Positions 10,289 to 55,316 of a stretch of 64,000 nt of DNA are shown here, in pieces. A model generated the notes under the pieces. The model had not been told where the DNA came from. It searched no databases and was given only the letters and a program-made list of their open reading frames with translations. The stretch lies in IMG/VR virus record IMGVR_UViG_3300021426_000009, positions 1 through 64,000 of that record, one strand, 5' to 3'. Both the position numbers and the translations under genes were made by a program. Positions within the stretch are counted from its first letter, which is position 1; every line of letters starts with the position of its first letter. Source of the stretch: a virus (taxonomy: Duplodnaviria; Caudoviricetes).

Positions 10289-10495
10289 ATGACGGTAGGA
10301 AAATATATCGAGTATCTGAAGACACTCGACCCAGGAAAGGGGATATGGGTGCGGTATGATGGCTCAAATGATTTTGCAGCCGGAATGAGAAAGCCAGTGG
10401 TAGAGGGCACTGTCAGTAAAGCCCTTTCCGAATACTCAAAGAAATGGCTTGATGAAGATGTTGAAGAAGGTGACTACTTCATCGATGTAAGTTAG
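10289..10495 (+). CDS. hypothetical protein
   Basis: ORF converging on the integrase. Confidence 0.6.
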   Translation: MTVGKYIEYLKTLDPGKGIWVRYDGSNDFAAGMRKPVVEGTVSKALSEYSKKWLDEDVEEGDYFIDVS

Positions 10496-11703
10496 AGTCC
10501 GAGAACGTAGTCAATGACCTTGCGGTTTGCCTCGTCGACCTTCCGATAGTCGGAATTGATATAGATGGCTGTCGTCTTGTTGCCATAGGAATGGCCCAAG
10601 GCGGCAGTTATTGTCTCCCGAGGTATGCCGATGCTGTCGGCTATCGTCGCCCATGTGTGTCTGGCCACATAGACGGACAGGCCGGGAAAGGCGGGATGAT
10701 ACACGAGTGTCTTCCTGCCGTTGACGATGACGTGCTCACGGGTGCCGATCTGCTTCAGAGCCCTGTTCACGGAACTGGTGAAGGTATGGGCATCCTTGTA
10801 TCTCTCGGAGAGGGACAGCAGCTGCCTGGTGCCTCGGTAGCGGTCTATGATTTCCTGAGCCTCGGGCTCGACCTTGATGTTATACATGCGGTAGGTCTTG
10901 GAACGCTGATACACAACTCTCCCATCAACGACTTCGAGGCCGTCACAGAGGTCTACAAGGTTGATTCCGATGAGATAAAAGACCAGCTTAAACAAATCCA
11001 CATACTTCCGCTGATGAGGCAACACGGGGTAGTTGAACAGCTCCCTCAGCCTCTCCACGCTGTAGGCACGCTTGGCGGTTGGCACGGGACGTACCATGAA
11101 CTTGCGGAAGGGATAGTAGGAGGTCACGTCATTGTCGATGGCATCGTTGAACACGGCACGTATGTTCCTGAAATGGATGGAACGTGTGTTCTGCGATGGC
11201 TCGAAGTCCGTCAGGAACAGGTCGAACCTCGTCAGCCAGTCCTTGGTGATCTGCTCGAAGGAGAGTGTGCCAACCTTGGAGTCGAACTGCTGCAGGCGCT
11301 TCATGGTCGCCTCGTAGATTTCACGGGTACGTTTCTTCTTGCGTGTCTGGGTGTACTGCCTGAAGCGCACCATGAAGAGGCTGCCGTCCTCGCTGGGGTT
11401 GAGCATGCCTACGATGGTGTTCTTGATTTGGACGGCCGTCATCTTGGTCAGCTTCCCCTCGGTGGTCAGCCGGAACAGGAGGTTGTCGACTCTCTGCTTC
11501 TGACTCTGCAGGTAGGCATTGATGGCCGTCTTGTTGGGATTGTCCTTGACCCTGCCGTGTTCCTTGTCCCACTGGCTGGGCAGTACCCTCACGTCGAGGG
11601 ATATGTATGCGCCCTGCCTGTTCTTGGTAATCTTGAGCTTTAGGGGAGCGGCCTCCCCATACTTCACAGCCCTTGTGTCGAGATAGAATTTCGTCGTTGC
11701 CAT
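10492..11703 (-). CDS. int: tyrosine integrase (arm-binding, SAM-like and catalytic domains)
   Basis: Likely start MATTKFYLD at 11703; YVARHTWATIA, ALGHS and TTAIY catalytic motifs; adjacent to the att site. Confidence 0.95.
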   Translation of the reverse strand: MATTKFYLDTRAVKYGEAAPLKLKITKNRQGAYISLDVRVLPSQWDKEHGRVKDNPNKTAINAYLQSQKQRVDNLLFRLTTEGKLTKMTAVQIKNTIVGMLNPSEDGSLFMVRFRQYTQTRKKKRTREIYEATMKRLQQFDSKVGTLSFEQITKDWLTRFDLFLTDFEPSQNTRSIHFRNIRAVFNDAIDNDVTSYYPFRKFMVRPVPTAKRAYSVERLRELFNYPVLPHQRKYVDLFKLVFYLIGINLVDLCDGLEVVDGRVVYQRSKTYRMYNIKVEPEAQEIIDRYRGTRQLLSLSERYKDAHTFTSSVNRALKQIGTREHVIVNGRKTLVYHPAFPGLSVYVARHTWATIADSIGIPRETITAALGHSYGNKTTAIYINSDYRKVDEANRKVIDYVLGL

Positions 11704-11708
11704 ATCGG

Positions 11709-12047
11709 TTTGCACGTTATTTGCACGCAAAGTGTTAAAAGACTCTCTCAGAACCCCCTGTTTACGGACATTTCGCAAAAAAGTGCTTTGCACGCTATTT
11801 GCACGCATTCAGGTGCAGAAGAGGTCAAAATGGTGCAAAATGGTTCAAAAGCAAGAATGCCCACCGACGTGGGTGAGCATCCTGAAAGCCCTTTGTTTAC
11901 TGGGGTTTTAGCGGAGAGAACAGGATTCGAACCTGCGAAACGATTTTGTCGTTTACACGCTTTCCAGGCGTGCATCCTCGCTATGTATGTTGTTAATTTA
12001 CAGAGAGTTGCGAACACCGAGTTTTTGATTTGCACGCTATTTGCACG
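11709..12047. repeat. integrase arm-type sites: three tandem pairs of TTTGCACG (11-bp period)
   Basis: 11709/11720, 11787/11798 and 12029/12040, flanking the tRNA-derived core. Confidence 0.75.
11911..11973 (-). other. attP core: 3' part of tRNA-Ser(GGA)
   Basis: Minus strand gives CACGC-CTGGAAA-GCGTG anticodon arm, a long variable arm, GCAGG-TTCGAAT-CCTGT T-arm and TCTCTCCGC; there is no 5' half. Confidence 0.85.
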
Positions 12048-29346: not shown

Positions 29347-29997
29347 ATGGAATTTTTCAAGACGATTGCAGATTTCCTGCAGGACGGCCAACAGGTTACG
29401 ATGGCCATCAGAAAGAGCGGTGGCAACATCGCAGTGAGTATCATGCCCGACAACCGAGGTGTCAAGGATAAGGCAGTGGAGAACATCACTCCGCTGGTCA
29501 TGAGCGGCACACCCGAAGACTTCGAGGAAGGCTTCAAGGATGCCCTCAAGCCGCTGGCACAGGCTCAGGGACTGGTGTCCAACATCAAGGAGTTCGAGGA
29601 GGGAACGGAGAAGGCAAAGCGTGAGTCCGAAATGGCTAAGAAGCTCAAGGACGAGGCGGCCAAGCAGAAGAAGGAGTTCAACGACCTCATCACTCTCGCA
29701 CGTAAGAACAAGGACGAGCACAAGTTCAAGGATGCACGTTCCATCCTCGCCAAGGCATCGGCACTGCCGTCTGCCGACAAGGCTCTCATCGGTAAGGTGA
29801 TGAAGGAGATCGACGATACAGCCGGTGTGGGCAACATGTTCATACAGGAGGAGGACAAGAGTGACGGCAAGGACTTGGGAGCCAAGGCTCCTGAGAAACC
29901 TTCAGAGGCAAAGCCCGAAGATGCAGCAGCTGCTGACGCTTTTGCTCAGGCAATGGAGTTAGATGACAATGATAACGAAAACGAAGAGGAGGAATAG
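29347..29997 (+). CDS. PRTRC system protein E
   Basis: MEFFKTIA..PLVMSGTPEDFEEGF N-terminal domain; first gene of the cassette. Confidence 0.8.
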   Translation: MEFFKTIADFLQDGQQVTMAIRKSGGNIAVSIMPDNRGVKDKAVENITPLVMSGTPEDFEEGFKDALKPLAQAQGLVSNIKEFEEGTEKAKRESEMAKKLKDEAAKQKKEFNDLITLARKNKDEHKFKDARSILAKASALPSADKALIGKVMKEIDDTAGVGNMFIQEEDKSDGKDLGAKAPEKPSEAKPEDAAAADAFAQAMELDDNDNENEEEE

Positions 29998-30000
29998 TAT

Positions 30001-30213
30001 ATGGCACTGAATGTAACAGGAATGAAGCGTGTGTTCAAGCATGGAACACGAGAGTTGGAAGACCCCGACAAGAACATGTCCCCTGAAGAGGTGATGCAGT
30101 TCTACTCGGCTACCTATCCAGAGTTGACGACGAGTAACGTACACGGCCCGAAGGTCGATGACCGTAACAGGGCTGTGTATGAGTTCAAGACGACAGTTGG
30201 TACTAAGGGATGA
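30001..30213 (+). CDS. PRTRC system protein C (ubiquitin-like)
   Basis: RVFK..LEDPD..SPEEVMQFYSATYPELTT..; ends VGTKG. Confidence 0.9.
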   Translation: MALNVTGMKRVFKHGTRELEDPDKNMSPEEVMQFYSATYPELTTSNVHGPKVDDRNRAVYEFKTTVGTKG

Positions 30214-30217
30214 AGAA

Positions 30218-31405
30218 ATGCAACAAGGAGCTACCAGAGTTTCACAAGGCTTTGTATTCGGTACTGGAGTCAGAACGAAGGCAAGAGTTCAGGGCAAGGG
30301 ACGAGGAGCGGCAACCGCTGCTCCCTCCCTCTGCGCCCCTGCTTTTCTGACCTCCCCGATACGACCGATACGTCCGACGAGCGAAGATACCGCTGCAAGG
30401 CTGGAGATAGACATAGACAAGAGCTATGCCAACGTCTCCGCAAGCCTTAGGCGGTTCTTCAAGGTCGTTGGTATCGAGTACGACTACGAGCCGAAGAAGG
30501 ACCTCACAAGGGCTCAGCAGCTTGGAGAGCTGATAGACTACGGAGAGAAGAAGATGGATTCTCTCGGACTTTCCCTTGCGGTCAGTAAGAAGGATTGTCA
30601 AGGAGGCGATGTCGATACCCTTGAATGTGTGGTGTATCGGTGGGGTAAGGAGTTAGAGGACACGATCGTCATCCTCTATTGTGCCCCTGCTGTATATATG
30701 TCCCCTGAAGGTTGTCAGATGTACAAGCGGTTCATGAAGTTCGTCACGGTGAGCACGGGAATACCTCTCGGCATCCCTGAGCATACGGAGAACTTCTACC
30801 TTGACTGCATCGTCAACATGGATGATGACTACATGTACGAGGATGAAGAGGAAGAGGAAAAAGACCCTGTCATCCTGAAGTACAGGCAGGACGGTGAGTT
30901 CTGGAACCTCTTCGACGAGATTGGAGGACTGCCTAAGGAGAAGCCTGGCGATCTGTATGCAGCACTCGATGACTACCGCCAGCGATGTCCGGATGATGAG
31001 ACAGAGGTGGTGGAGGCCATGATGGAGGGCATAGACATCATCAAGTATGCGAACTACTACTGGTTCGAGTTCAACCCAGACGATGACGGGCTTCCCAACG
31101 AGTGGGGCAACGACAGCGCAGACGGATATGCAAGCAGCGTGTTCGCCTCTGCCATCCTCTTCTCCGAGCAGGACGGAATCTCAGAGCAGCTGCTGGACAC
31201 CGTGAACAACGAAGTGAATGCCGGTATCATGATGACTGGCTGGAATATTCATCAATGGCTGTCACCGAAGACGGCGAAGGCCGACATACTCGAGTTCATG
31301 CGATGCAAGGACCTGTGCGCATCACTCGATGACTGGCTGAGGACGTTCTATCGGGCAACCGAGAAATTTGACTTATATGGGAAATCTGAGCAAGATACTG
31401 AATGA
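30218..31405 (+). CDS. PRTRC system protein F-like (start uncertain)
   Basis: Position between C and B; acidic. Confidence 0.6.
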   Translation: MQQGATRVSQGFVFGTGVRTKARVQGKGRGAATAAPSLCAPAFLTSPIRPIRPTSEDTAARLEIDIDKSYANVSASLRRFFKVVGIEYDYEPKKDLTRAQQLGELIDYGEKKMDSLGLSLAVSKKDCQGGDVDTLECVVYRWGKELEDTIVILYCAPAVYMSPEGCQMYKRFMKFVTVSTGIPLGIPEHTENFYLDCIVNMDDDYMYEDEEEEEKDPVILKYRQDGEFWNLFDEIGGLPKEKPGDLYAALDDYRQRCPDDETEVVEAMMEGIDIIKYANYYWFEFNPDDDGLPNEWGNDSADGYASSVFASAILFSEQDGISEQLLDTVNNEVNAGIMMTGWNIHQWLSPKTAKADILEFMRCKDLCASLDDWLRTFYRATEKFDLYGKSEQDTE

Positions 31406-32075
31406 GAAACTGGAGGCTACCGATGCTTTGGTGTTCTACAAGAGCAACCTCAATGAGGGTGCGTATGTGGAGCATCGTCCAATCATAAACGGAGCGATGT
31501 GCGCAGGTAAGCCTCTCGAAGTCGATGTCATAGCAAAGCTGCTGAAGACGGTCGACAAGTATGCGCACGGAACAACGTCGATGGTGTCACTCCATGGAGA
31601 GATACCTGAGAACCTGCTGTATGCCAGTACGAGCATCGACTCCTACCGACTGGTGTGGTACAGGAAGCCGGAGAAGAGAATGTTCTTTTTCTCCGAGAGC
31701 CTCGGCATACCGAACGGGGAGGTGATGGTTCCTGGTCTTGTCTATGTGACGGACGGCAAAGGCCTCTCGATGTATGCCTTCAAGGGAAGGAAGCCGAAGA
31801 AGCTGCTGTATCAGGCTCCGTTCTTCAATACGAGCACAAACGTATGCCTCGGAAACGGAAAGCTGCCAAAGCCGAAGGATCAGACCTATGCGAACTGGAT
31901 GGCCTACTGGGAGGAGCTGTTTTGGAAGACGGAGTTCTCCCACCTGATGGGCGGCAACCCTGTCAAGGGTAACCTCTCCATCATCATGAAGGAGTGCATA
32001 AGCGGTCACAAACCGTTCCCTGTGAACTCACTGATAGCAACAAGAACAACCCTACAAGCATTATACAGGAAATGA
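31377..32075 (+). CDS. PRTRC system protein B (prokaryotic E2 family D)
   Basis: LVWYRKP..VPGLV..LYQAPFFNT..VCLGN..WEELFWKTEFSH. Confidence 0.85.
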   Translation: MGNLSKILNEKLEATDALVFYKSNLNEGAYVEHRPIINGAMCAGKPLEVDVIAKLLKTVDKYAHGTTSMVSLHGEIPENLLYASTSIDSYRLVWYRKPEKRMFFFSESLGIPNGEVMVPGLVYVTDGKGLSMYAFKGRKPKKLLYQAPFFNTSTNVCLGNGKLPKPKDQTYANWMAYWEELFWKTEFSHLMGGNPVKGNLSIIMKECISGHKPFPVNSLIATRTTLQALYRK

Positions 32076-32848
32076 AGTACAAGCATTATGTTCATCCGTA
32101 CATTTTAGACCCTGCGCATCCGCTGACGGTAGCCTTGATAGGTGCCGGAGGGACAGGCTCACAGGTGTTGACCTCCCTCGGTAGGATGAATTACGCATTG
32201 AGGGAGCTCGGCCATCAGGGCCTGCATGTGAAGGTGTATGACGCAGACATCGTGACAGCTGCCAACTGCGGACGTCAGCTTTTCTCCCCAGTGGAGGTAG
32301 GACGGAACAAGGCAGAGGTGTTGACAACGAAGCTGAACATGTTCTTCGGAACGTCATGGGAAAGCATCCCCGAAATGTATGACGAGAGGACTGGACACAC
32401 GAACTTCGTGATTTCATGCGTCGATACGGTTGCATCGAGGCTGGCCATCAGGAAGAACATTATCAGGGAGGACTCAAGAGCCGCCCGTGGCTATGACATG
32501 GAGAGAAGCTACTACTGGCTGGACTTCGGCAACACGCAGTCCACAGGTCAGGTGATACTCGGAACGACGAGAGACCTCTCCTGCAACAAGCGGAAGGATA
32601 ATGTCGGTCTGTTAAGGTGCGTGACGGACTTCTTCGACCTCAGCAAGGTCAACGAGAAGAAGAGCGGCCCAAGCTGCTCACTCGCTGAAGCACTGACGAA
32701 GCAAGACCTGTTCATCAACTCTACTCTCGCCCAGATAGGCATGGCGATTCTTTGGAAGATGTTCTCGAAGGGAGTACTGGAGACACAGGGTGCCTTCCTG
32801 AACCTCGATACGATGAAAGTGAATCCGATAAAGGTAGAGAAGATATGA
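32072..32848 (+). CDS. PRTRC ThiF/E1-like protein
   Basis: LIGAGGTGSQ, NCGRQ, ISCVD, WLDFGN and PSCSLAEAL.KQDLFIN. Confidence 0.9.
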   Translation: MKYKHYVHPYILDPAHPLTVALIGAGGTGSQVLTSLGRMNYALRELGHQGLHVKVYDADIVTAANCGRQLFSPVEVGRNKAEVLTTKLNMFFGTSWESIPEMYDERTGHTNFVISCVDTVASRLAIRKNIIREDSRAARGYDMERSYYWLDFGNTQSTGQVILGTTRDLSCNKRKDNVGLLRCVTDFFDLSKVNEKKSGPSCSLAEALTKQDLFINSTLAQIGMAILWKMFSKGVLETQGAFLNLDTMKVNPIKVEKI

Positions 32849-33483: not shown

Positions 33484-33882
33484 ATGAAGATATATACAAG
33501 TTATTTCGGAAACCTCAGAGCGTTAGGAAACGCTGGCATAATGCCGATCAGCATAGCAAGATATTCGCCAAAATGGTATGACGGGGCACGTTTCCCTGGT
33601 GTCGCTCCGACGAGTTACATGCTCAGCGGTGCTTGCAGCCATGAGGAATACCTGAAGAAGTATCAGGAGATACTGAACAGACTGGACCCTCATCAGGTGA
33701 TTAAGAACATTCAGGCATTCAGCGGAGGCAGGGACGTGGCTCTCTGCTGCTACGAGAAGCCTGGCGATTTCTGTCACCGACACCTCCTTTCGGAATGGCT
33801 GAGGAACAACGGCTATGATGTGAATGAATGGAAGCCGGAGGAGAAGAAGGAGGAAGTCCAGCAGCTGTCGCTATTCGATTAG
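33484..33882 (+). CDS. DUF488-like protein
   Basis: IYTSYF..LCCYEKPGDFCHRHLL motif. Confidence 0.75.
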   Translation: MKIYTSYFGNLRALGNAGIMPISIARYSPKWYDGARFPGVAPTSYMLSGACSHEEYLKKYQEILNRLDPHQVIKNIQAFSGGRDVALCCYEKPGDFCHRHLLSEWLRNNGYDVNEWKPEEKKEEVQQLSLFD

Positions 33883-33957
33883 GTTGTGTTTTTCTTTAGA
33901 GCCATATAAGTAAAATGAATACTCAGAAGGTCTGCCATCCGTGAGGAACGCAGATTT

Positions 33958-34031
33958 GGACCGATAGCTCAGCAGGATAGAGCGGCTGCCTCCTAAGCAG
34001 CAGGTCGGGGGTTCGAATCCCTTTCGGTTCA
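33958..34031 (+). tRNA. tRNA-Arg(CCT)
   Basis: Full cloverleaf; GCTGC-CTCCTAA-GCAGC anticodon arm; GTTCGAATCC. Confidence 0.9.
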
Positions 34032-34050
34032 CAGACTGGAGAAGATGTAG

Positions 34051-34141
34051 GGGTCAGGGTGAAATCCATAAGCCCTGATGAGTAAAGGGAAGCCAGATGT
34101 GGATGCTGGCAAACATGCAGGTTCGAATCCTGTCAGCTTCA
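34051..34141 (+). tRNA. degenerate tRNA-like RNA with long variable arm (possible GAG/Leu anticodon)
   Basis: GAAGATG/CAGCTTC acceptor (1 mismatch), canonical T-arm GCAGG-TTCGAAT-CCTGT, GCCAG..CTGGC extra arm; D and anticodon arms non-canonical. Confidence 0.5.
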
Positions 34142-34147
34142 AAGGTT

Positions 34148-34217
34148 TAGCAGTTAGCTCAAGTAGAGCGCCCGATCGCTAATCGGGAGGTTAAGGGTTC
34201 GAGTCCCTTACTGCGCA
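34148..34217 (+). tRNA. atypical tRNA-like RNA, GCT anticodon on a short-variable-loop body
   Basis: CCCGA-TCGCTAA-TCGGG, 5-nt D-loop without GG, AAGGG-TTCGAGT-CCCTT, only 5 acceptor pairs. Confidence 0.6.
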
Positions 34218-34305
34218 TCTATATCGGTGTTCCGTTACGGAGCGAGTAAGTCCAGGAAAAGAGGCACGCAGTCCAATCGACATGACCGAAACGGACACCG
34301 AAAAT

Positions 34306-34377
34306 CGCGGAGTAGAGCAGTGGTAGCTCGCTACGCTCATAACGTAGAGGTCGCAGGTTCGAGCCCTGTCTCCGCAA
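34306..34377 (+). tRNA. tRNA-Met(CAT), initiator-like body
   Basis: CGCGGAG/CTCCGCA with C1:A72 mismatch; CTACG-CTCATAA-CGTAG. Confidence 0.9.
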
Positions 34378-34452
34378 CAGAGAGAGTACTTAGCCGTAGA
34401 GGAAACTCCCCAATAAACACGAAACGGCATGAACGTGCGAGTCGTCATGGTA

Positions 34453-34539
34453 GAACAAGTAGCTATAAGTCGGTAGTCCGACATTGGTGAGAGCCCCGTC
34501 GTGTACGGGAGGTTTTGGGTTCGAGTCCCGACTTGTTCA
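34453..34539 (+). tRNA. tRNA-like RNA with expanded D-arm (possible GTG/His anticodon)
   Basis: Perfect GAACAAG/CTTGTTC acceptor, GTCGG-TAGT-CCGAC insert in the D region, CCCG-TCGTGTA-CGGG, GGGTTCGAGTCCC. Confidence 0.55.
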
Positions 34540-34556
34540 CGAGAAATATCATTGTC

Positions 34557-35624
34557 ATGAAAGTAGCAATTATCGGAACTGGGAACGTCGGCATCGCCAT
34601 AGCTGCCGACTTGTCTATCAGGGAGCATGAGGTGTCCCTGATAAAGACGTCAAATGTGAGATCGGAGGCCTATGACAGGCTTCTCAGGAACAACAACCGT
34701 GTGTACTTAAAGGAGGACGGAACCTATACGCAGACCACCATCAAGGAGGTAACACGGGACATCACTAAGATTTCGGATGCGGAGGTGGTCATCGTGACCA
34801 TCCAGAGCACCTACCACGAAGAGCTGTACAAGAGGATAGCCCCGTATCTGAAAGGCAGTCAGGTGGTGCTCATCATCTGCAGCTATATGTCTTCTTTCTA
34901 CCTGTCGAAGTATTGTCAGGTGCTGCCTGCCATCGCAGAGGCTACTGGCCCCTACCTCGAGGGTCGTGTGGAACTGAACGATATGAAGGAAGAGGTGGTA
35001 TTTAGGGTAGGATGCAGGCTTACGAGAAGCCCGCTGTCGGTGTTCCATCCAAATCGTGCCAATGAGTGCATGGAGAAGCTGAAAGCCCTGTACAAGGGCC
35101 TGAGCAACGACTACTCTGTCATAGAGTCAGCCCTGCTGAACCCGAACCTCGTGATTCACACCGTAGGAGCCGTCATGAGCATCCCTCGCATCGAGTACAG
35201 CGACGGGAACTTCTGCATGTATCGTGAGGCTTACAGTCACAAGAACCAGGCCACGCTCAACGTCATGTTCAAGCTGGATGAGGAGAAGAAGAAAGTTCTG
35301 ATAGCGCTCAACAGCAGGGGTATCGACATCTTGGAGGCCGGTGGCTTCCTGAAGGGCATGGAGAGCTTCTATGAGTATTCCGAGTCGGAAGACAGGGCCA
35401 TCAGTCCGACCTCGATACACTCGAGATACATCACGGAGGACGTTTCTCAGGGACTGGTACTGATGGAGAGCATAGCCAACTATCTCGGTATCATCGTGCC
35501 AGTTACGACTTCTCTCATAGACCTCGCAAGCGCAGCCCTCGGCATTGATTTCAGGCTCGAGGGACGCAGTATATTCTCGCTGGATGCCGACAGATACATT
35601 GACCACCTGACGCATAGACTATGA
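34557..35624 (+). CDS. NAD(P)-dependent opine (octopine/nopaline-type) dehydrogenase
   Basis: Rossmann VAIIGTGNVG; LLNPNLVIHT and RYITEDVSQGLV motifs of the opine DH C-terminal domain. Confidence 0.85.
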   Translation: MKVAIIGTGNVGIAIAADLSIREHEVSLIKTSNVRSEAYDRLLRNNNRVYLKEDGTYTQTTIKEVTRDITKISDAEVVIVTIQSTYHEELYKRIAPYLKGSQVVLIICSYMSSFYLSKYCQVLPAIAEATGPYLEGRVELNDMKEEVVFRVGCRLTRSPLSVFHPNRANECMEKLKALYKGLSNDYSVIESALLNPNLVIHTVGAVMSIPRIEYSDGNFCMYREAYSHKNQATLNVMFKLDEEKKKVLIALNSRGIDILEAGGFLKGMESFYEYSESEDRAISPTSIHSRYITEDVSQGLVLMESIANYLGIIVPVTTSLIDLASAALGIDFRLEGRSIFSLDADRYIDHLTHRL

Positions 35625-37696
35625 ATATCGGAGAAGACCTGAAGACCCGAACCTTCGGTGTGGAGATAGAAATGTGTAACCTCGACAGGCAACTGGTCAA
35701 GCTGCCGGATGGTTACTCATGGAGCAAGGATGAGGAAATCGTGAATACGGACGGGTCGAGCAACAAGCGTTTCGGTGGAGAGGTGAACACCCCTCCACTC
35801 TGTGTTTACAGCATGAAGGACCTCCACAGCCTGAAGGCCTGCTATGACTCCATGAGGGAGGCTGGAGGTGTGATAAAATGGACTACCTACACGCACGTCC
35901 ATGTTTATGCAGGAGACCTGACTGTCGAGCATATAAAGAAGGTATGGCTCTTCTTCTATATCTGCTACCCTTGGTGGAAGAGATACACGAAACTCTCCGA
36001 CTGGGACGAGCTGACGTTCAACTGCCAGCCGCTGCCGACAGAGAAGTACTACAAGGGACTGCTGGAGGCAGAGACCTTCGAGGACATCAACAAGCTGTTC
36101 ACGAACCAGTCGAAGAAGGGATTCATCAGGCATGCCTGCAATATCTCAGCATACTTCAAGACGAAGACCATAGAGTTCAGGACATATCACGGCACGAGCG
36201 ATTTCAGGGAGGCCATGAACTGCGTCCTCTCGACGTACCGTCTGTTCTACTATGCCGTCAACCATGATTTGGATGACTACAAATCCATTTCCTCATATGA
36301 GCAGTTTTTGCAGGCTACGGGACTCAAATACGAGGTCCCAAGAGAGCTTGTTCCTCTACTCTACCAAGGAAACCCCTATAGTGCCATCGAGACGTTCCAG
36401 ACGAGATCCCTGCCGTATAACTCGAAGCAGGCATCGGCATTGTGGGAGGCCGTCAAGAATCACGGGCACAAGGAGCTCTGCATCGTGAACGGCTTCATGT
36501 ACTACTACGAGCTGTTCTTTATGGACAAGGTGAAGCTCTCCATCTATGCCCAGGACCCGTACTGCCATCTGCTGTGGATGATAGCCAACGGCAAGATAAC
36601 GCTGAAGTACAAGGAGAAGTTGTCATGGCTGGAGGACTATAATAACGAAACCCCGTCACGGCAGCTTGCGATTGCCTTGTATGCGGAGAAACTGCAGAAG
36701 TTCTCAATGAGCGATTCCAAGAGGAACGAGGCTGTCATCGAGTCGGTCAAGATACGTGCCAAGGAATCCATCGAGAAGACGGAGAAGGGCTGCGAACGTC
36801 TCATGAAGCTGCTGACCACCTGCGAGTACCATGTTGGAACGCTTCAGGATGCCATACCTCAGAAGAGCGTGATATTCTTCAACTACGGCAAGGACAAGAC
36901 GCAGAAGCGAACGTTCAAGCTGATAGCGGAGAACAGCGACTTGGAAATGGAGTTCAACTGCAAGCGCAATGACTACTACGAGGTGATAGAGTCCCTGCCA
37001 AAGGAGTCATACTTCTATTACTTCAGCAACAGCCCGTACCTGCGTAACATGCACAAGCTGGCCATGTGGGACTCGTCAAGCGGAGACAGGTGGTCTGCAG
37101 GCCGTTTCCTGTACTGCAACAAGCCGAGCAACCAGAATCAGGTCAGCACGTCATACAAGTCGAACCATGTGGAGGTGAACGAGATCGTCCCGCCTGATGA
37201 CCTGGTCATCGACAACCCGAACAGCCTGAAGATAGTAAGGGTCAGCTCATCGTCACTCCATTGTCTTCAGAAGAAGTACATCAAGAAGGTCGACCAGTGC
37301 AGCATGTGCACCTATGCCTTCGTCGTGATGTACGAGAAGTACACCCTCGGAGGCTTCGGCTTCACGCTTCCTCAGCACAAGGGCTACGACCTGTTCCAGC
37401 TGACGGATTTCTGCACGAACAACAATATCCCACGACTGGCGAAGCTGATACTGCTCTGCATACAGACGGCCGGTGTGCAGAAGGAACTCTCACGAAGGAT
37501 GCACAAGCTGTGCGAGAAGGTCATATCATGTGCCTATACGCACAAGCCTGTCAGTATGAAGTACAGGGGTGTCTATACGAAGGTGAAGGAGCATTGCACA
37601 ACCTCATACCTCGCATACGAGGGACAGCTGGGCAAGTTCGCCACCAACAAGGAGGTAATAGAGAAATATCGTAAAATGTTGAATAATGGAAATTGA
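35621..37696 (+). CDS. fusion of amidoligase (COOH-NH2 ligase), degenerate adenine-MTase-like and GNAT/Mom-like domains
   Basis: N-terminal RTFGVEIE, GGEVNTPPL, THVHV, KTIEFR. C-terminal LTDFC..RLAKLILL..AYTHKPVSMKYRG resembles phage 'antirestriction MTase/acyltransferase' proteins. Confidence 0.7.
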   Translation: MNIGEDLKTRTFGVEIEMCNLDRQLVKLPDGYSWSKDEEIVNTDGSSNKRFGGEVNTPPLCVYSMKDLHSLKACYDSMREAGGVIKWTTYTHVHVYAGDLTVEHIKKVWLFFYICYPWWKRYTKLSDWDELTFNCQPLPTEKYYKGLLEAETFEDINKLFTNQSKKGFIRHACNISAYFKTKTIEFRTYHGTSDFREAMNCVLSTYRLFYYAVNHDLDDYKSISSYEQFLQATGLKYEVPRELVPLLYQGNPYSAIETFQTRSLPYNSKQASALWEAVKNHGHKELCIVNGFMYYYELFFMDKVKLSIYAQDPYCHLLWMIANGKITLKYKEKLSWLEDYNNETPSRQLAIALYAEKLQKFSMSDSKRNEAVIESVKIRAKESIEKTEKGCERLMKLLTTCEYHVGTLQDAIPQKSVIFFNYGKDKTQKRTFKLIAENSDLEMEFNCKRNDYYEVIESLPKESYFYYFSNSPYLRNMHKLAMWDSSSGDRWSAGRFLYCNKPSNQNQVSTSYKSNHVEVNEIVPPDDLVIDNPNSLKIVRVSSSSLHCLQKKYIKKVDQCSMCTYAFVVMYEKYTLGGFGFTLPQHKGYDLFQLTDFCTNNNIPRLAKLILLCIQTAGVQKELSRRMHKLCEKVISCAYTHKPVSMKYRGVYTKVKEHCTTSYLAYEGQLGKFATNKEVIEKYRKMLNNGN

Positions 37697-38387
37697 AGAC
37701 AGATGGAAGTACGATGTGGTTGACATCAACCTCATCGACGAGGCGGAACTGAACGCCAATGAAATGACTGGAGAGGACTTCGCCACCTTGTGTGAGAACA
37801 TCGGCAAGTCCGGACTGAGCAGTGTCCCGTGCTGCTACAAGAAGAAGAACGGAAGGTTCGGCATGATAAGCGGCCACCACAGGCTCAGGGCATGCAAGAA
37901 GAACCATTTCGCCAAGATCGGCATCCTTTGGTGTGACGAGGATGAGCTGTCTCAGGATGAGATTATAGCCATCCAGCTGTCTCACAACTCGCTGCACGGA
38001 GAGGACAACAAGAGCATCCTGAAGAAGTTGTTCGAGCAGATTCAGAGCATAGACTTCAAGAAGTTCGCCCACATCAACATCGACGAGGTGGCTCCCGTCA
38101 GCACGGACGGCATCAGCATCTTCGCCTTGAAGGAGAACTTCGTGTTCACGATAATACTCTACCCCAACTCGTTCGAGAACCTTGACGAGCTGTACGGGGA
38201 CATACGTGAGCAGGCAAAGAAGAGCGATGCCCTCATTCTCGCAGACCAGACCAACGAAATGCTTCTGCTGAAGCTGCAGCAGGACATCGGCAACCAGTAT
38301 AACATCAAGTCGCCATCCATCACGTTCGCCAAGCTGCTGGAGCTGGCCAAGGAGAGGCTTGAGGAAGTGAAGGAGGGCAAGGAATGA
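37686..38387 (+). CDS. ParB/Srx-like N-terminal domain protein
   Basis: NANEM..MISGHHRLRAC..IAIQLSHNSLHGED. Confidence 0.85.
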   Translation: MEIEDRWKYDVVDINLIDEAELNANEMTGEDFATLCENIGKSGLSSVPCCYKKKNGRFGMISGHHRLRACKKNHFAKIGILWCDEDELSQDEIIAIQLSHNSLHGEDNKSILKKLFEQIQSIDFKKFAHINIDEVAPVSTDGISIFALKENFVFTIILYPNSFENLDELYGDIREQAKKSDALILADQTNEMLLLKLQQDIGNQYNIKSPSITFAKLLELAKERLEEVKEGKE

Positions 38388-39250
38388 TCTGGACGATAGT
38401 AAGCAAGGCCGAAATGGAGGGGTATGCCATCCCTCCAGTCTTCCAGTATTACAGGGAGGTAATAGGCAGGGAGAACATCAGCCTGTCTGTAGTGGACGAG
38501 GATGACCCTCTCGACTTCATCAGATATGGTGATTTGGTGCTGTTACGCACGGCAAGCAGGAAGCTCATCGAGACGATAGAGAGTAAGGGTGTGGCCACTA
38601 CGGCAGAGCACTACTCGGTCTATCAGCAGGCAAGCGACAAGGCAGAGCTGGGACGCTTTCTCTTCGAGCATGGCATCAAGGTGCCGAGACAGTACAGCAT
38701 CGACAACCTCCAGCCGGGAAGCACGTATTTCGTCAAGCCTCGTTACGGAAGCGAGAGCTTCGGCATTACGGAACACAATATATGCCACAGCAAGGAAGAT
38801 GTCAGGTTTCAGGTCATGCGGCTGCAGGAACTGGGCTATGAGAGTATCATCGAGGAGTTCATCGATGGAAATGATGCGACTGTAGCCTGCTATTACAATC
38901 CTGAGAACAGCGTAGTGTATGCCCATGCCATTGCCGTCGATTGTGAGACGAAGGGCTCCATTCAGACGCACAAGGGCAAGTTCGACTACAATGAGTACTG
39001 CTATGCACTGAGAGGATCTGTAGGCAAGAAGGCTTGCGCCATGAGCAGGGAGGTGTTCAGATTACTCGGCATCAGGCATCATGCGAGGATAGACTTCCGC
39101 TTCACGGAGAGAGGTGATGTGTACCTCATCGACGTGAACCTGCTGCCCGGCCTCGGTCCGTCGGCTCATTTCTCGAAATGCCTGCTTCTGACGGAGAACA
39201 TTTCGTATGCGGACACCATCATGAACATTTTGAAATCAGCAAGAGGATAG
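38384..39250 (+). CDS. ATP-grasp ligase (Ddl-like)
   Basis: YFVKPRYGSESFGI, IIEEFIDG, ARIDFR and LIDVNLLPGL. Confidence 0.85.
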   Translation: MIWTIVSKAEMEGYAIPPVFQYYREVIGRENISLSVVDEDDPLDFIRYGDLVLLRTASRKLIETIESKGVATTAEHYSVYQQASDKAELGRFLFEHGIKVPRQYSIDNLQPGSTYFVKPRYGSESFGITEHNICHSKEDVRFQVMRLQELGYESIIEEFIDGNDATVACYYNPENSVVYAHAIAVDCETKGSIQTHKGKFDYNEYCYALRGSVGKKACAMSREVFRLLGIRHHARIDFRFTERGDVYLIDVNLLPGLGPSAHFSKCLLLTENISYADTIMNILKSARG

Positions 39251-39252
39251 AT

Positions 39253-39606
39253 ATGGCAAAGAACATTTCGATTGAGGACATCGTAAAGATGTACGAGAAG
39301 AAGGGTTGCAACATCACGGCAACCTGTGCTGCCCTGAATATCTCCCGTAAGACTTTCTACGAATGGAAGGAGAAGAAGAAGAAGCTCGCAGAGGGTCTGG
39401 AGGAGGCAGAGGAGGCTGTCCTCGACTGGGCAGAGAGCAAGCTGAAGGAGCATATCCAGAACGATGATCTGCAGGCCCTGATATTCTTCCTGAAGACGAA
39501 GGGTAAGAAGAGGGGCTATGTAGAGAAGACGGAGACCGACGTGAACATCAACCAATTCGAAAAGCTCATGCAGGAAACGGAGGATGATGACGATGACGAT
39601 GAGTAA
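39253..39606 (+). CDS. terS: terminase small subunit
   Basis: HTH (ATCAALNISRKTFYEW), IFFLKTKGKKRGYVE; abuts TerL. Confidence 0.85.
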   Translation: MAKNISIEDIVKMYEKKGCNITATCAALNISRKTFYEWKEKKKKLAEGLEEAEEAVLDWAESKLKEHIQNDDLQALIFFLKTKGKKRGYVEKTETDVNINQFEKLMQETEDDDDDDE

Positions 39607-41117
39607 TGGGTAGTTCCGACAAGCGACATAACAAGATGCGAGCGTGGCGCAAGGACTGGTGTTTATTCGCCAAGCAAGTGCTCCACGCTCGTCTCGACAA
39701 AGAGCAGAAGGAAATCCTGCGAGCCATACAGAATGAACGCATGGTTGCCGTAGCTTCGGGTACAGCCCGAGGCAAGGACTATATTGCCGCTGTCGCATGC
39801 CTGTGCTTCATGTACCTCACTCCCCGATGGAAGGACGGCCGTCTGGTGAAGAATACCAAGATTGCGATGACGGCTCCTACCGACCGACAGGTGAGGAACA
39901 TCATGGTTCCTGAGGTCAGACGTCTCTACAAGGCCGCTCAGGTGCTGCCTGGCCGTCTTGTCGGCTATGACATACGAACGGAGTATGAGGAATGGTTCCT
40001 GACAGGCTTCAAGTCGAGTGCGGACAATACGGAGGCATGGTCTGGATTCCATGCCGTGAACACGATGTTCGTGGTGACGGAGGCATCGGGTATCTCGGAG
40101 ACTATTTACAATGCCATCGAGGGTAACCTGCAGGGCAACTCACGACTGCTGCTTGTGTTCAACCCGAACGTAACTACTGGCTATGCGGCCAATGCCATGA
40201 AGTCGGCACGTTTCAAGAAATTCAGGCTCAACTCCCTGAATGCCGAGAACGTTGTCAGGAAGAAGAACGTCATCCCAGGTCAGGTGGACTATGAATGGGT
40301 GAAGGATAAGGTCGAGAACTGGTGCATCCCCATCAGGGAGGAAGATGTCAACGAGGGAGAGGGAGACTTCTTCTGGGAAGGACGCTGGTACAGACCGAAC
40401 GACCTCTTCCGTGTCAAGGTTCTCGGAATGTTCCCGAAGGTGGCGGAGGACGTGCTCATACCATACGAATGGGTGGAGATTGCCAACAGACGATGGCTGG
40501 AGCTTCAGGAGGAGGGCTTCACCACGAAGAAGAAATGCAGACTCGGTGTCGACGTGGCCGGTATGGGTCGAGACTCGTCCGTCCTGTCCCCGAGATACGG
40601 TAACTACCTCGGAGAGTTCGAAGTCCACAACTCCGCTGGTGTGGCAGACCACATGCACGTCGCAGGCATGGTGTCCAACTACCTCGTCAAGAAAGGCACG
40701 AAGGCCTTCATCGATACCATCGGTGAGGGTGCAGGTGTCTATTCGAGGCTGAAAGAACTCGGCTACGACTATGCCTATTCGTGCAAGTTCTCGGAGAATG
40801 CCAACGGCCTCCATGACATCACGGAGGTCTATACGTTCGCCAATATGCGTGCCTACCTGTACTGGGCTGTCAGGGACTGGCTGAACCCGAAGAACGGCTT
40901 CGAGCCTGCCGTACCGCCAAACGATCTGTTTATGCAGGAGTGTACGGAGGTGCACTGGAAGTTCCAGAGCAGCGGAAGCATCATCATAGAGAGCAAGGAT
41001 GACATCAAGAAGCGCCTCGGAAGGTCTCCTGACTACCTCGATTCGGTGGCCAACACGTTCTACCCGAGGGACTACGAGACACTGCAGGAAAGCGAGATTT
41101 TCGGAGATTTCCTCTAA
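39606..41117 (+). CDS. terL: terminase large subunit
   Basis: VASGTARGKD Walker-like motif, VVTEASG, LGVDVAGMGRD nuclease, KKRLGRSPDYLDS. Confidence 0.9.
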   Translation: MGSSDKRHNKMRAWRKDWCLFAKQVLHARLDKEQKEILRAIQNERMVAVASGTARGKDYIAAVACLCFMYLTPRWKDGRLVKNTKIAMTAPTDRQVRNIMVPEVRRLYKAAQVLPGRLVGYDIRTEYEEWFLTGFKSSADNTEAWSGFHAVNTMFVVTEASGISETIYNAIEGNLQGNSRLLLVFNPNVTTGYAANAMKSARFKKFRLNSLNAENVVRKKNVIPGQVDYEWVKDKVENWCIPIREEDVNEGEGDFFWEGRWYRPNDLFRVKVLGMFPKVAEDVLIPYEWVEIANRRWLELQEEGFTTKKKCRLGVDVAGMGRDSSVLSPRYGNYLGEFEVHNSAGVADHMHVAGMVSNYLVKKGTKAFIDTIGEGAGVYSRLKELGYDYAYSCKFSENANGLHDITEVYTFANMRAYLYWAVRDWLNPKNGFEPAVPPNDLFMQECTEVHWKFQSSGSIIIESKDDIKKRLGRSPDYLDSVANTFYPRDYETLQESEIFGDFL

Positions 41118-55240: not shown

Positions 55241-55314
55241 GCGGAGATAGCTCAGCTGGTCAGAGCGTGGCAATTCCATTGTCAAGGTCGGTGGTCCGAC
55301 TCCACCTCTCCGCT
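55241..55314 (+). tRNA. tRNA-Gly(TCC)-like element inside the tail operon
   Basis: GCGGAGA/TCTCCGC-T acceptor, GCTC/GAGC D-stem, TGGCA-ATTCCAT-TGTCA, GGTGG-TCCGACT-CCACC (non-canonical T-loop). Confidence 0.7.
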
Positions 55315-55316
55315 CT

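Follow-up and report, generated by a model that had tools for sequence, protein, structure and literature searches.

On balance, we favor reading the four-gene cassette at positions 34557-39250 of the window as a pathway, expressed late and linked to packaging, for post-replicative hypermodification of the phage's own DNA, with adenine N6 as the most likely site. The window is the whole 64,000-nucleotide stretch of DNA that was analyzed. Its source record holds a complete phage of 74 kb that has direct terminal repeats; the hosts are Prevotella/Bacteroidales, and the phage is a rumen Prevotella phage. No paper describing this set of genes, or joining an opine dehydrogenase (ODH) with phage hypermodification, was found in the literature searched, in line with the original prediction, which knew of no characterized phage pathway containing such an enzyme. 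The tRNA array between the DUF488 and ODH genes (33958-34539) was called by ARAGORN, Rfam and folds. The features of the locus are listed below.

33484-33882, + strand: DUF488-N3a protein, 132 aa (Pfam PF22751, 3.3e-11; phrog_2450, 8e-39)
33958-34032, + strand: tRNA-Arg(CCT) (ARAGORN; Rfam tRNA, 66 bits)
34041-34141, + strand: tRNA-like element (Rfam tRNA, 22.9 bits)
34147-34219, + strand: Ser(GCT)-like tRNA without a long variable arm (Rfam tRNA, 49.7 bits)
34306-34378, + strand: tRNA-Met(CAT) (Rfam tRNA, 63.8 bits)
34453-34539, + strand: 87-nt tRNA-like element directly 5' of the ODH gene (Rfam tRNA, 29.7 bits)
34557-35624, + strand: ODH gene (ORF)
35621-37696, + strand: three-domain fusion gene, 691 aa (ORF)
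35621-36349, + strand: fusion domain 1, residues 1-243, glutamine-synthetase/YbdK-like carboxylate-amine ligase (Amidoligase_2; Pfam, VIA)
36407-37126, + strand: fusion domain 2, residues 263-502, Dam-type N6-adenine methyltransferase fold (Pfam, VIA)
37208-37636, + strand: fusion domain 3, residues 530-672, GNAT-fold acyltransferase (Pfam, VIA)
37686-38387, + strand: ParB-like gene (ORF)
38384-39250, + strand: Ddl-like ATP-grasp ligase gene (ORF)
39178 (or 39208)-39606, + strand: terS, terminase small subunit (phrog_309, 8e-12)
39606-41117, + strand: terL, terminase large subunit (phrog_2, 1e-29)
55241-55315, + strand: tRNA-Gly(UCC) with T-loop UCCGACU (C55) (ARAGORN, alignment)

The ORF coordinates and overlaps agree with the original prediction of four overlap-coupled genes running straight into terS and terL, and profile searches bore out the gene content that it named (an ODH, a 691-aa amidoligase fusion, a ParB-like protein and a Ddl-like ATP-grasp ligase). 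Starts overlap the preceding stops by 4 nt (ODH/fusion), 11 nt (fusion/ParB-like) and 4 nt (ParB-like/ATP-grasp), and the ATP-grasp gene overlaps terS by 43-73 nt, depending on which terS start is used. terL shares position 39606 with terS, and by this overlap geometry the cassette is translationally contiguous with both. No convincing internal terminator was found when the cassette was scanned. The dN/dS values against close relatives were 0.02-0.17 over all four genes, which indicates purifying selection on each of them.

The fusion is the central protein of the proposed pathway. HMM and structure searches, which the original prediction had called for, resolved it into a ligase, a Dam fold and a Mom-like GNAT. 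Pfam Amidoligase_2 matched domain 1 with 60 bits (4e-16), and a VIA search with the model of this domain gave Z scores of 11.6 against YbdK (1r8g) and 11.3 against plant GCL (2gwc); it is also structurally like Dop/PafA. Ten of its residues are invariant (E15, E17, G52, T57, P59, H94, R170, T183, E185 and R187), and at least 90% of members have G53, E54 and N56. Domain 2 matched Pfam DAM-like-phage2 with 318 bits (1.6e-95), and its model aligned with E. coli Dam-DNA complexes over Dam residues 11-270 (Z 10.2-10.5). The DPPY and FxGxG motifs were sought in this domain and found in none of 24 family members, and residues 246-468 hold no position that is invariant among the members. Invariant catalytic-type residues occur in the ligase and GNAT domains and not in the Dam-like domain, which has no catalytic or SAM-binding motif (motif I and DPPY are lost) and is catalytically dead; presumably it serves as a scaffold that binds DNA and presents the base.

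Domain 3 matched Pfam GNAT-phage-like (PF22559) with 141 bits (5e-41). Residues G577, D596, S645, K647, Y648, R649 and Y666 are invariant and common to two-domain relatives; all 24 full-length members also have G650, which at least 90% of the wider set retains. In the structural ranking of about 1000 chains, phage Mu Mom (8bv8) came first (Z 10.9-11.0, rmsd 3.0-3.1 over 134-135 residues), although it leads generic GNATs by only about 1 Z unit, the next GNAT scoring 9.8-9.9. The modeled domain is therefore a GNAT fold closest in structure to Mu Mom. The likeness to Mom holds for structure and not for sequence: the fusion gave no match to Pfam Mom (PF25680) at E <= 0.01, and hhalign of the GNAT domain against Mu Mom gave a probability of 0.1%.

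Mom transfers glycine from Gly-tRNA(Gly) to N6 of adenine in dsDNA (Silva et al. 2026, PMC13219725), and in addition to the GNAT fold it has in common with the present set of genes a phage late function and a link to tRNA-Gly. In the cultured actinophages MenE and Wyborn, true Mom homologues lie directly 3' of a ParB-like gene, and the sole tRNA above the Rfam cut-off in the MenE genome is a neighboring tRNA-Gly. However, the GNAT studied here belongs to a different Pfam family, shares one polypeptide with a dead Dam fold and a carboxylate-amine ligase, and has DUF488, ATP-grasp and ODH proteins alongside; the final adduct should therefore exceed carbamoylmethyl in size. Another counterpart is found in two-domain DAM-like-phage1 + GNAT-phage-like proteins (phrog_7858 type, about 425-450 aa), whose GNAT has the same invariant G, D, S-x-K-Y-R and Y. 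The single long locus of this type that was fetched (L097) holds DUF488, terminase and, just after terL, a tRNA-Gly. These proteins do not have the N-terminal amidoligase domain, and the examined loci are without ODH and ATP-grasp genes; the system in the window is an extended version of theirs.

The ODH protein (355 aa, beginning MKVAIIGTGNVG) belongs to the NAD(P)-dependent opine dehydrogenase family. Pfam Octopine_DH matched it with 94.2 bits (cut-off 30; 1e-26), and the Rossmann N-domain was also matched. CENDH (1bg6) aligned with it over the full length, placing H201/R290/D295 opposite the catalytic triad H202/R292/D297. The likeness to characterized opine dehydrogenases (CENDH, octopine DH 3c7a and the staphylopine CntM type) thus extends to full-length homology, the Rossmann motif and the aligned His/Arg/Asp triad, but identity is only about 20-25%. 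Unlike those enzymes, this one is phage-encoded, lies within a proposed nucleic-acid-modification operon and has no assigned amine or keto acid substrate. Its dN/dS is 0.06-0.10.

The ATP-grasp protein (288 aa) matched Pfam Dala_Dala_lig_C (53 bits, 3e-14) and ATP-grasp_3 (35 bits, 2e-8), with PDB matches to Ddl/VanA. The ParB-like assignment, to a ParB/Srx fold, is the weakest of the gene calls. This 233-aa protein matched phrog_7405 at 6e-72, PHROG ParB-like families at about 1e-9 and TIGR00180 at 1e-5; Pfam ParB_N stayed under its cut-off on the window protein (14.9 bits), and ParB_N matches are on record for orthologues. The motifs ISG(H/N)HR and QLSHNS are conserved. A precedent for a ParB-like activator comes from phage DNA thymine dioxygenases, which such proteins switch on; ParB-like proteins are also found together with terminases (PMC13229309).

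Comparison with relatives separated a core from accessories. The DUF488-N3a, fusion, ParB-like, terS and terL genes are kept from 90% to 24% fusion identity, and the ParB-like gene lies directly 3' of the fusion, before the terminase, in all lineages examined. DUF488-N3a, found 5' of the fusion at 76 of 80 close IMG/VR loci (many from one sample and so not independent) and in all deep lineages for which the contig extended upstream, is a conserved core member, although the proposed pathway gives it no defined step. ODH is absent from 14 of the 80 close loci and from most deep lineages, and is a lineage-specific accessory gene. The ATP-grasp gene is missing from several deep lineages, and the P0006, P0018, P0028 and P0032 loci lack it; where fusions are 68-90% identical, ATP-grasp proteins are only 28-88% identical and fall into at least four types. 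It is an accessory too, and of all members the one that diverges fastest. In other lineages the variable slot holds an Acetyltransf_1 GNAT or, in two lineages, a 282-298-aa protein with weak Ala_racemase_N/D-Ser-dehydratase matches, and so varies among amino-acid-chemistry enzymes. The four genes of the original prediction are therefore not one invariant unit: the fusion and ParB-like genes are constant, ODH and ATP-grasp are not, and the core also takes in DUF488-N3a. A PRTRC ubiquitin-like cassette lies just 5' of these genes in the window phage. PRTRC genes are absent from all relatives with fusion identity under about 80% and therefore are not members of the set.

A tRNA-Gly is found directly 5' of the cassette at most of the 80 IMG/VR loci and at 9 of 10 GTDB loci with upstream DNA, including L092, L094 and L112 (39%, 35% and 35% fusion identity). 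In the relatives this slot holds a tRNA-Gly that is often structurally aberrant. Against the favored reading stand four deep lineages (L086-L088 and L090) with no tRNA in the fetched DNA, and the window itself, where the element adjoining ODH is an unassignable 87-nt tRNA-like RNA and the tRNA-Gly(UCC) lies about 20 kb downstream of the cassette. Its acceptor stem (GCGGAGA/UCUCCGC, U73) is that of the relatives' aberrant cassette-adjacent tRNA-Gly. In two 69-73-kb relatives, the only tRNAs found were the cassette-adjacent tRNA-Gly pair and one 108-nt tRNA-like element. Among 21 aligned cassette-linked tRNA-Gly, C2, G3, C35, C36, G71 and C72 are invariant and G1, C70 and U73 occur in at least 90%, while all four nucleotides occur at position 34; many of these tRNAs carry A33 or an abnormal D- or T-loop. 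As judged from this alignment, the GlyRS identity elements are preserved and position 34 is free to vary. The cassette-linked tRNA-Gly is the likely acyl donor, which the original prediction did not include. A comparable case is FemXAB of Staphylococcus, a GNAT-fold aminoacyl-tRNA transferase served by dedicated non-proteinogenic tRNA-Gly isoacceptors, whose altered D- and T-loops divert them from translation. The FemXAB acceptor is a peptidoglycan precursor, whereas DNA is proposed here, and diversion of the phage tRNAs is suggested by their sequences only.

The Dam fold, the Mom-like GNAT and the constant ParB-like gene before the terminase fit a DNA-base modification built from amino-acid chemistry, and to this extent the original prediction stands. 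Alongside the observed gene order, folds and conservation pattern, we infer a DNA substrate and an opine product. The dead Dam-like domain would bind DNA and present the base, with the ParB-like protein as loader or activator. The GNAT would move an aminoacyl group from a charged tRNA onto the base, the donor in most relatives being glycine on a phage-encoded, partly non-decoding tRNA-Gly. The fused ligase would at once join the tethered group in an amide bond, perhaps by capping its free alpha-amine with a gamma-glutamyl-type residue, trapping an intermediate that in Mom rearranges spontaneously. In the window lineage, the Ddl-like ligase would attach a further amide-linked residue, and ODH would reductively condense an alpha-keto acid with a free amine of the adduct or its precursor, leaving an N-carboxyalkyl (opine-type) end group. 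The fusion, ParB-like and DUF488 proteins would form the engine, ODH and ATP-grasp interchangeable decoration modules. The step order and the substrates of the ligases and ODH are purely conjectural. The window ORFs that were scanned include no nucleotide-precursor modifying enzyme, in keeping with a route that acts after replication. Thymidine hypermodification clusters of phages likewise build amino-acid or polyamine DNA adducts after replication with combinatorial accessory enzymes, and uncharacterized amidoligases have been noted in them (Lee et al. 2018, 2021; PMC5889632, PMC8989533). However, that route starts from 5-hmdU and a kinase, and the window ORFs that were scanned yielded no hydroxymethylase, kinase or aGPT-Pplase; here, the Dam-like character of the domain that handles the base suggests adenine.

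Three other readings were weighed. ODH and ATP-grasp may produce an opine or a D-amino-acid dipeptide as a free small molecule, independently of the fusion, the position in the cassette reflecting co-expression only; such a product could be an anti-defense metabolite or nutrient signal. The two genes are gained and lost independently of the core, and to our knowledge all characterized opine dehydrogenases, the CntM type included, act on free small molecules. This reading is unlikely: both genes occupy fixed slots in a translationally coupled operon (ODH between the tRNAs and the fusion, ATP-grasp between ParB and terS), and other amino-acid-modifying enzymes fill the same slot elsewhere, a pattern typical of the tailoring steps of one pathway. 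A free product could, moreover, still be the carboxylate installed by the fusion ligase.

It is also improbable that the enzymes act on a private tRNA or aminoacyl-tRNA, with the methylase-like domain binding RNA and the GNAT, ligase and ODH altering the aminoacyl moiety or an adenosine (A37, for example); this might provide a decoy, allow evasion of host anticodon nucleases or retune late-infection translation. The linked tRNA genes are close by and many are non-canonical, for TacT-type toxin GNATs Gly-tRNA(Gly) is the substrate and not the donor (PMC13219725), and the rRNA methyltransferases AviRa and KsgA-like 2h1r are among the lower-ranked matches of the middle domain. However, that domain is closest to Dam-DNA complexes, along the entire Dam chain (Z 10.2-10.5, with an rRNA methyltransferase reaching 9.5), the ParB-fold partner and fixed slot before terS/terL point to DNA, and several deep lineages (L086-L088 and L090) hold no tRNA within the fetched DNA. 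Modification of a virion, packaging or host protein is more doubtful still. Here the GS-like and ATP-grasp ligases would tag the target with amino acids or peptides, in the manner of pupylation or RimK-type tailing, and a lysine or an N-terminus would be acylated by the GNAT. The likeness to Dop/PafA, the neighboring PRTRC cassette, the peptide-tagging roles predicted for phage amidoligases in Aravind-lab surveys, as cited in PMC11318856, and the protein-modifying roles predicted for RimI-like GNATs in phage proteins (PMC5512222) are consistent with it. A whole Dam fold retained in the enzyme and Mom as top GNAT match argue against it; protein tagging would have no evident need of the obligatory ParB-fold partner or of the tRNA-Gly linkage, and the PRTRC genes are missing in the more distant relatives. 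In the favored pathway, the finished adduct would shield the DNA from host nucleases and, if the reading is true, would be a DNA modification not seen before.

The phage record is complete (74,120 bp, with direct terminal repeats), and the window is its first 64 kb. A tyrosine integrase at 10492-11808 in the window indicates that the phage is temperate. It was found in gut and rumen metagenomes of sheep, goat and bovine, and Prevotella genomes harbour close relatives of the cassette, that is, the genes for DUF488-N3a, an opine dehydrogenase (ODH), a three-domain fusion protein, a ParB-like protein and an ATP-grasp ligase that lie ahead of terS and terL (33484-41117 with terS and terL included, + strand). 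The last four of these ORFs show successive start-to-stop overlaps:

34557-35624, + strand, opine dehydrogenase, 355 aa
35621-37696, + strand, fusion protein, 691 aa
37686-38387, + strand, ParB-like protein, 233 aa
38384-39250, + strand, Ddl-like ATP-grasp ligase, 288 aa

The ATP-grasp ORF also overlaps terS, and terS abuts terL. The original prediction of four overlapping genes leading into terS/terL is borne out by these ORF coordinates and overlaps, and a terminator search across the cassette ORFs gave no convincing terminator interrupting them. All four genes are under strong purifying selection (dN/dS 0.02-0.17). RNA-library contigs from two studies contain pieces of the cassette at a depth of 2-8; these were discounted as evidence of expression because they are assembled contigs with possible DNA carry-over.

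Directly upstream of the cassette, the window contains a PRTRC ubiquitin-like cassette (29347-32848) consisting of PRTRC_E (PF19556), a PRTRC_C Ubl (TIGR03738), a 415-aa unknown protein, PRTRC_B (TIGR03737) and a ThiF/E1 protein (TIGR03736, 256 bits). PRTRC_B, ThiF and the 415-aa protein were seen only in the closest relatives (loci L002-L007). Membership of the ParB-like gene in this neighbouring cassette was rejected because the gene stays with the fusion in all relatives without PRTRC genes. On the downstream side, many relatives have an insertion hotspot between terS and terL with 1.3-2.5 kb of extra ORFs, which is absent from the window. In locus L015 (12000-13385) and many other loci the terL match falls at ~13.3-14.5 kb rather than ~12.0 kb.

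Gene content was compared in two sets of relatives. The close set comprised 80 IMG/VR loci, many from one metagenome, with fusions 68-90% identical; the deep set comprised seven lineages on contigs of varying upstream reach. The fusion, ParB-like, ATP-grasp and terS genes occur in fixed order in 80 of 80 close loci, with DUF488 upstream in 76. ODH is missing in 14 of the 80, and there DUF488 and tRNAs directly precede the fusion. In the deep lineages DUF488-N3a lies upstream wherever the contig is long enough, and the fusion, ParB-like, terS and terL genes then follow. ATP-grasp is present in three of the seven and ODH in one, the lineage with 44% fusion identity. In two independent deep lineages (L094:2897-3745 and L090:3904-4800) the slot before the fusion is occupied by a 282-298-aa protein with weak Ala_racemase_N and D-ser_dehydrat matches, and in other deep lineages by an Acetyltransf_1 GNAT or unknown small proteins. 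Judged by these matches, the 282-298-aa proteins may be fold-type III PLP enzymes that supply a D-amino acid. This pattern of retention across close and deep lineages identifies DUF488, the fusion and ParB ahead of the terminase as the engine, and ODH and ATP-grasp are swappable amino-acid-chemistry accessories. Thus, the expectation that the genes travel together holds for the core of DUF488, fusion and ParB, but only in part for the predicted four-gene set, from which ODH and ATP-grasp are variably absent. The full cassette, with two tRNA-Gly genes, is also carried by two cultured Prevotella strains, P. vespertina A2879 (a prophage in NZ_VVIQ01000002.1, about 181.8-191.9 kb) and Prevotella sp. 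KH2C16.

The fusion protein matches the Pfam families Amidoligase_2, DAM-like-phage2 (1.6e-95) and GNAT-phage-like (5e-41), as well as phrog_2443. An AlphaFold2 model was built from 24 family members (mean pLDDT 88.2) and matched to solved structures with VIA. The N-terminal domain (residues 2-243) matched YbdK (1r8g, Z 11.6) and plant glutamate-cysteine ligase (2gwc, Z 11.3), and the protein scored 60 bits against Amidoligase_2 (PF12224, cut-off 22). By HMM and by the fold of the model, this domain is a carboxylate-amine ligase of the glutamine-synthetase/GCS2 fold. Its structural neighbours all activate a glutamate-type carboxylate. The invariant ExE, His, Arg and TxExR residues are kept: E15, E17, H94, R170, E185 and R187 are invariant in the 24 members (22-73% identity), and E54 is present in 96%. 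By analogy with the family, these residues would form the metal/ATP site.

The middle domain of the fusion (residues 263-502) matched E. coli Dam-DNA complexes with Z 10.2-10.5 over almost the whole Dam chain (Dam residues 11-270), and in the model it has a Rossmann-like methyltransferase fold with a Dam-type DNA-binding region. The motif IV pattern [DNS]PP[YFWH] (DPPY) and the SAM-binding FxGxG of motif I were each found in none of the 24 members, the domain has no conserved glycine-rich motif, and no position between residues 246 and 468 is invariant. For these reasons the domain is a catalytically dead methyltransferase, and the best reading makes it a scaffold that handles nucleic acids.

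The C-terminal GNAT domain (residues 530-672) matched Mom, the DNA-modifying GNAT of phage Mu (8bv8), with Z 10.9-11.0 and an rmsd of 3.0-3.1 over 134-135 residues. Mom was the top VIA match and was fourth by Foldseek E-value; it leads generic GNATs by about 1 Z unit (next GNAT 9.8-9.9). The closest fold is therefore that of Mom, yet the fusion has no sequence homology to it: the Mom HMM PF25680 gave no match at E <= 0.01 (Mu Mom itself scores 253 bits), and an hhalign comparison of the fusion-family profile with Mu Mom gave a probability of 0.1%, no relation. The invariant residues of the domain are D596, S645, K647, Y648, R649 and Y666. Catalytic residues of Mom are R111 and S124 (also D149 and R151).

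In a search of 1.8 billion representative proteins, full-length three-domain clusters numbered only about 25-30, the most distant at 24% identity. The search also returned ~430-aa two-domain relatives composed of the Dam-like and GNAT domains, in which D596, the S-M-K-Y-R-G motif and Y666 are also kept. Searches of PDB sequences with the fusion, singly and as a profile, gave nothing meaningful. A tblastn search of 50,697 cultured-phage records gave weak GNAT-domain matches in mycobacteriophages and no full-length relative. ODH gave only marginal matches in the same records.

The window ODH is a member of the opine dehydrogenase family, predicted from its sequence to carry out the NAD(P)H-dependent reductive condensation of an amine with an alpha-keto acid. 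It scored 94.2 bits against PF02317 (the C-terminal helical Octopine_DH domain, cut-off 30) over residues 187-327, and Pfam matches to ApbA and NAD_Gly3P_dh_N cover residues 2-107. Its N-terminus, MKVAIIGTGNVG, is a GxGxxG Rossmann motif for NAD(P) binding. In a full-length phmmer alignment to N-(1-D-carboxyethyl)-L-norvaline dehydrogenase (CENDH, 1bg6), H201, R290 and D295 fall on H202, R292 and D297, the catalytic His/Arg/Asp of CENDH. The ATP-grasp protein has a short N-domain and matches Dala_Dala_lig_C (53.4 bits, cut-off 24) and ATP-grasp_3 (35.1 bits, cut-off 23.2). Its assignment as a true Ddl was rejected, the best score against the NCBIfam equivalog/subfamily models being 51.8 bits against a cut-off of 243. 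Across the 80 IMG/VR loci it is by far the most divergent member of the cassette (28-88% identity, at least four types), and its type is independent of the presence of ODH.

The ParB-like protein scored 14.9 bits against ParB_N (PF02195), under the cut-off of 26.3, and matched TIGR00180 at 1e-5, also below cut-off. PHROG ParB-like families match it at about 1e-9, and ParB_N matches are recorded for its orthologues. The GxxR box of ParB is GERRxRA; in the alignment to 4umk, GERRLRA is matched by an ISG(H/N)HR(L)RA box, which 12 orthologues as little as 32% identical have kept. The DUF488 protein had no match among PDB sequences, and Atlas gave its own family alone.

One precedent for this set of genes has ParB-like proteins as activators of phage thymine dioxygenases, in systems that co-occur with terminases (PMC13229309). 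In the cultured actinophages MenE and Wyborn, a ParB-like gene stands immediately before a true Mom homologue. A profile made from the cassette ParB showed only generic ParB-fold similarity (probability 57%) to the partner of the MenE Mom homologue, and no match to the ParB-like protein of Wyborn. tRNA-dependent DNA modification was first shown in 2026, for Mom. Mom moves glycine from Gly-tRNA(Gly) to adenine N6 in dsDNA; the base-bound glycyl intermediate goes on to rearrange (PMC13219725). In Microbacterium phage MenE (PQ362677.1, 29392-30651) the ParB-like gene overlaps the Mom homologue, and next comes an atypical tRNA-Gly(CCC); no other tRNA in the 38.5-kb genome passes the Rfam cut-off. 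MenE thus lends itself readily to experiments on whether a private tRNA acts as donor.

Relatives of the cassette have a tRNA gene, mostly tRNA-Gly, 70-100 nt ahead of the first enzyme gene. Of ten GTDB loci with upstream DNA, nine had a linked tRNA-Gly, odd Gly-like forms counted. The linkage extends to the deep lineages L092 (39% fusion identity), L094 (35%) and L112 (35%); several deep lineages had no tRNA in the fetched DNA. ARAGORN identified a cassette-adjacent tRNA-Gly pair in two 69-73-kb relatives, whose only tRNA matches in a whole-record Rfam scan were one member of the pair and a 108-nt tRNA-like element. Within the linked tRNA-Gly set (n=21), C2, G3, C35, C36, G71 and C72 are invariant and G1, C70 and U73 occur in >=90%; together these are the identity elements for bacterial GlyRS. 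All four bases (A, C, U and G) occur at position 34 on otherwise near-identical bodies, and in one case C36G turns the anticodon of such a body into that of Arg. A subfamily without G18G19 has G55, and deep-lineage copies have A33. This pattern is what would be expected of a tRNA selected for charging rather than decoding; a known example of a charged, non-decoding tRNA is the non-proteinogenic tRNA-Gly that serves FemXAB. A role as mere codon-usage supply was judged less likely because position 34 flips among all four bases (once with an Arg anticodon) and several copies have A33, G55 or C55, or lack G18G19.

In the window itself the pattern is less clear-cut: the slot before ODH contains Arg, Ser-like (without a long arm) and Met tRNAs and two unassignable tRNA-like elements. 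A Gly-type tRNA at 55241-55315 shares the acceptor stem of the linked tRNA-Gly and has C55. In the closest relatives, L003 and L004, an aberrant Gly-like tRNA is still directly before ODH. The two tRNA-like elements (34453-34539 and 34041-34141; Rfam 29.7 and 22.9 bits) have good acceptor and T arms and aberrant D/anticodon regions; the first, of 87 nt, ends 17 nt ahead of the ODH start. A single tRNA body with acceptor GCAGUUA.../...UACUGC, in no case with a long variable arm, has differing anticodons in close relatives:

window 34147-34219, GCT
L002:6614-6689, GAT
L003:6741-6812, CCT
L004:6764-6838, GCT
L006:2736-2808, GTT

Given these sequences, this phage tRNA may switch its anticodon or be non-decoding. 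In addition, a conserved tRNA-like gene of ~108 nt lies 14-20 kb downstream of the cassette in L083 (128-236), L084 (107-215, - strand) and L085 (99-208). It scored 42-45 bits against the Rfam tRNA model, and ARAGORN reads it, as Trp or Arg, only if a 16-19-nt 'intron' is allowed in the anticodon loop.

Taken as a whole, the best-supported reading is that the cassette would modify DNA adenines after replication. This is inferred from the Dam fold, the likeness of the GNAT to Mom, the obligatory partner of ParB fold and the position before terS/terL, and from a scan of window ORFs in which no precursor-modifying enzyme turned up. The less likely rival readings are that the target is tRNA, that the cassette tags proteins, or that its product is a free opine or dipeptide.

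The fullest version of this reading is put forward tentatively and considered doubtful as a whole. In it, glycine would be loaded in the manner of Mom from a private, non-decoding tRNA-Gly, amide extension by the ligase and ATP-grasp and reductive N-carboxyalkylation of the tethered amine by ODH would give a peptide- or opine-type adduct on adenines of dsDNA, and phage lineages would swap the accessories, and so diversify the adduct, in an arms race with restriction systems. Within the main reading, the fused GS/YbdK-like ligase could acylate the tethered alpha-amine at once, which would explain the fusion of ligase and transferase. The Ddl-like ligase and ODH might then elaborate the adduct. 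ODH chemistry on the amine of glycine has a precedent in strombine-type enzymes, and ODH products carry a D-alanine-like centre, which fits the sharing of the variable slot by ODH and a racemase-like gene. Compared with Mom, the cassette would be a tRNA-dependent modification of the same type plus two amide ligases and, uniquely, an ODH.

The domains of the cassette are already catalogued in Pfam and PHROGs. Searches by Pfam names and accessions, by DUF488 with amidoligase and by ODH with phage hypermodification, partial in coverage, found no paper describing or testing the cassette. Known phage DNA hypermodification chemistries are few. Each has brought new enzymology and tools, restriction-resistant DNA and base-specific labelling among them. 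The hypothesis is directly testable, since the two cultured Prevotella strains carry the full cassette, and it offers testable roles for the 'known unknown' Pfam families DAM-like-phage2, GNAT-phage-like and DUF488-N3a and for the ParB-like genes common beside terminases. If the full scheme is true, its opine dehydrogenase would be the first with a role in modifying nucleic acids, and the enzymes together would form a small non-ribosomal assembly line on DNA. The phage would also have dedicated tRNAs that perhaps do not serve translation. The tRNA-dependent principle would then cover the stepwise building of amide and opine groups on DNA, and would reach a large enzyme family, unrelated in sequence to Mom, that is abundant in rumen and gut Prevotella phages.
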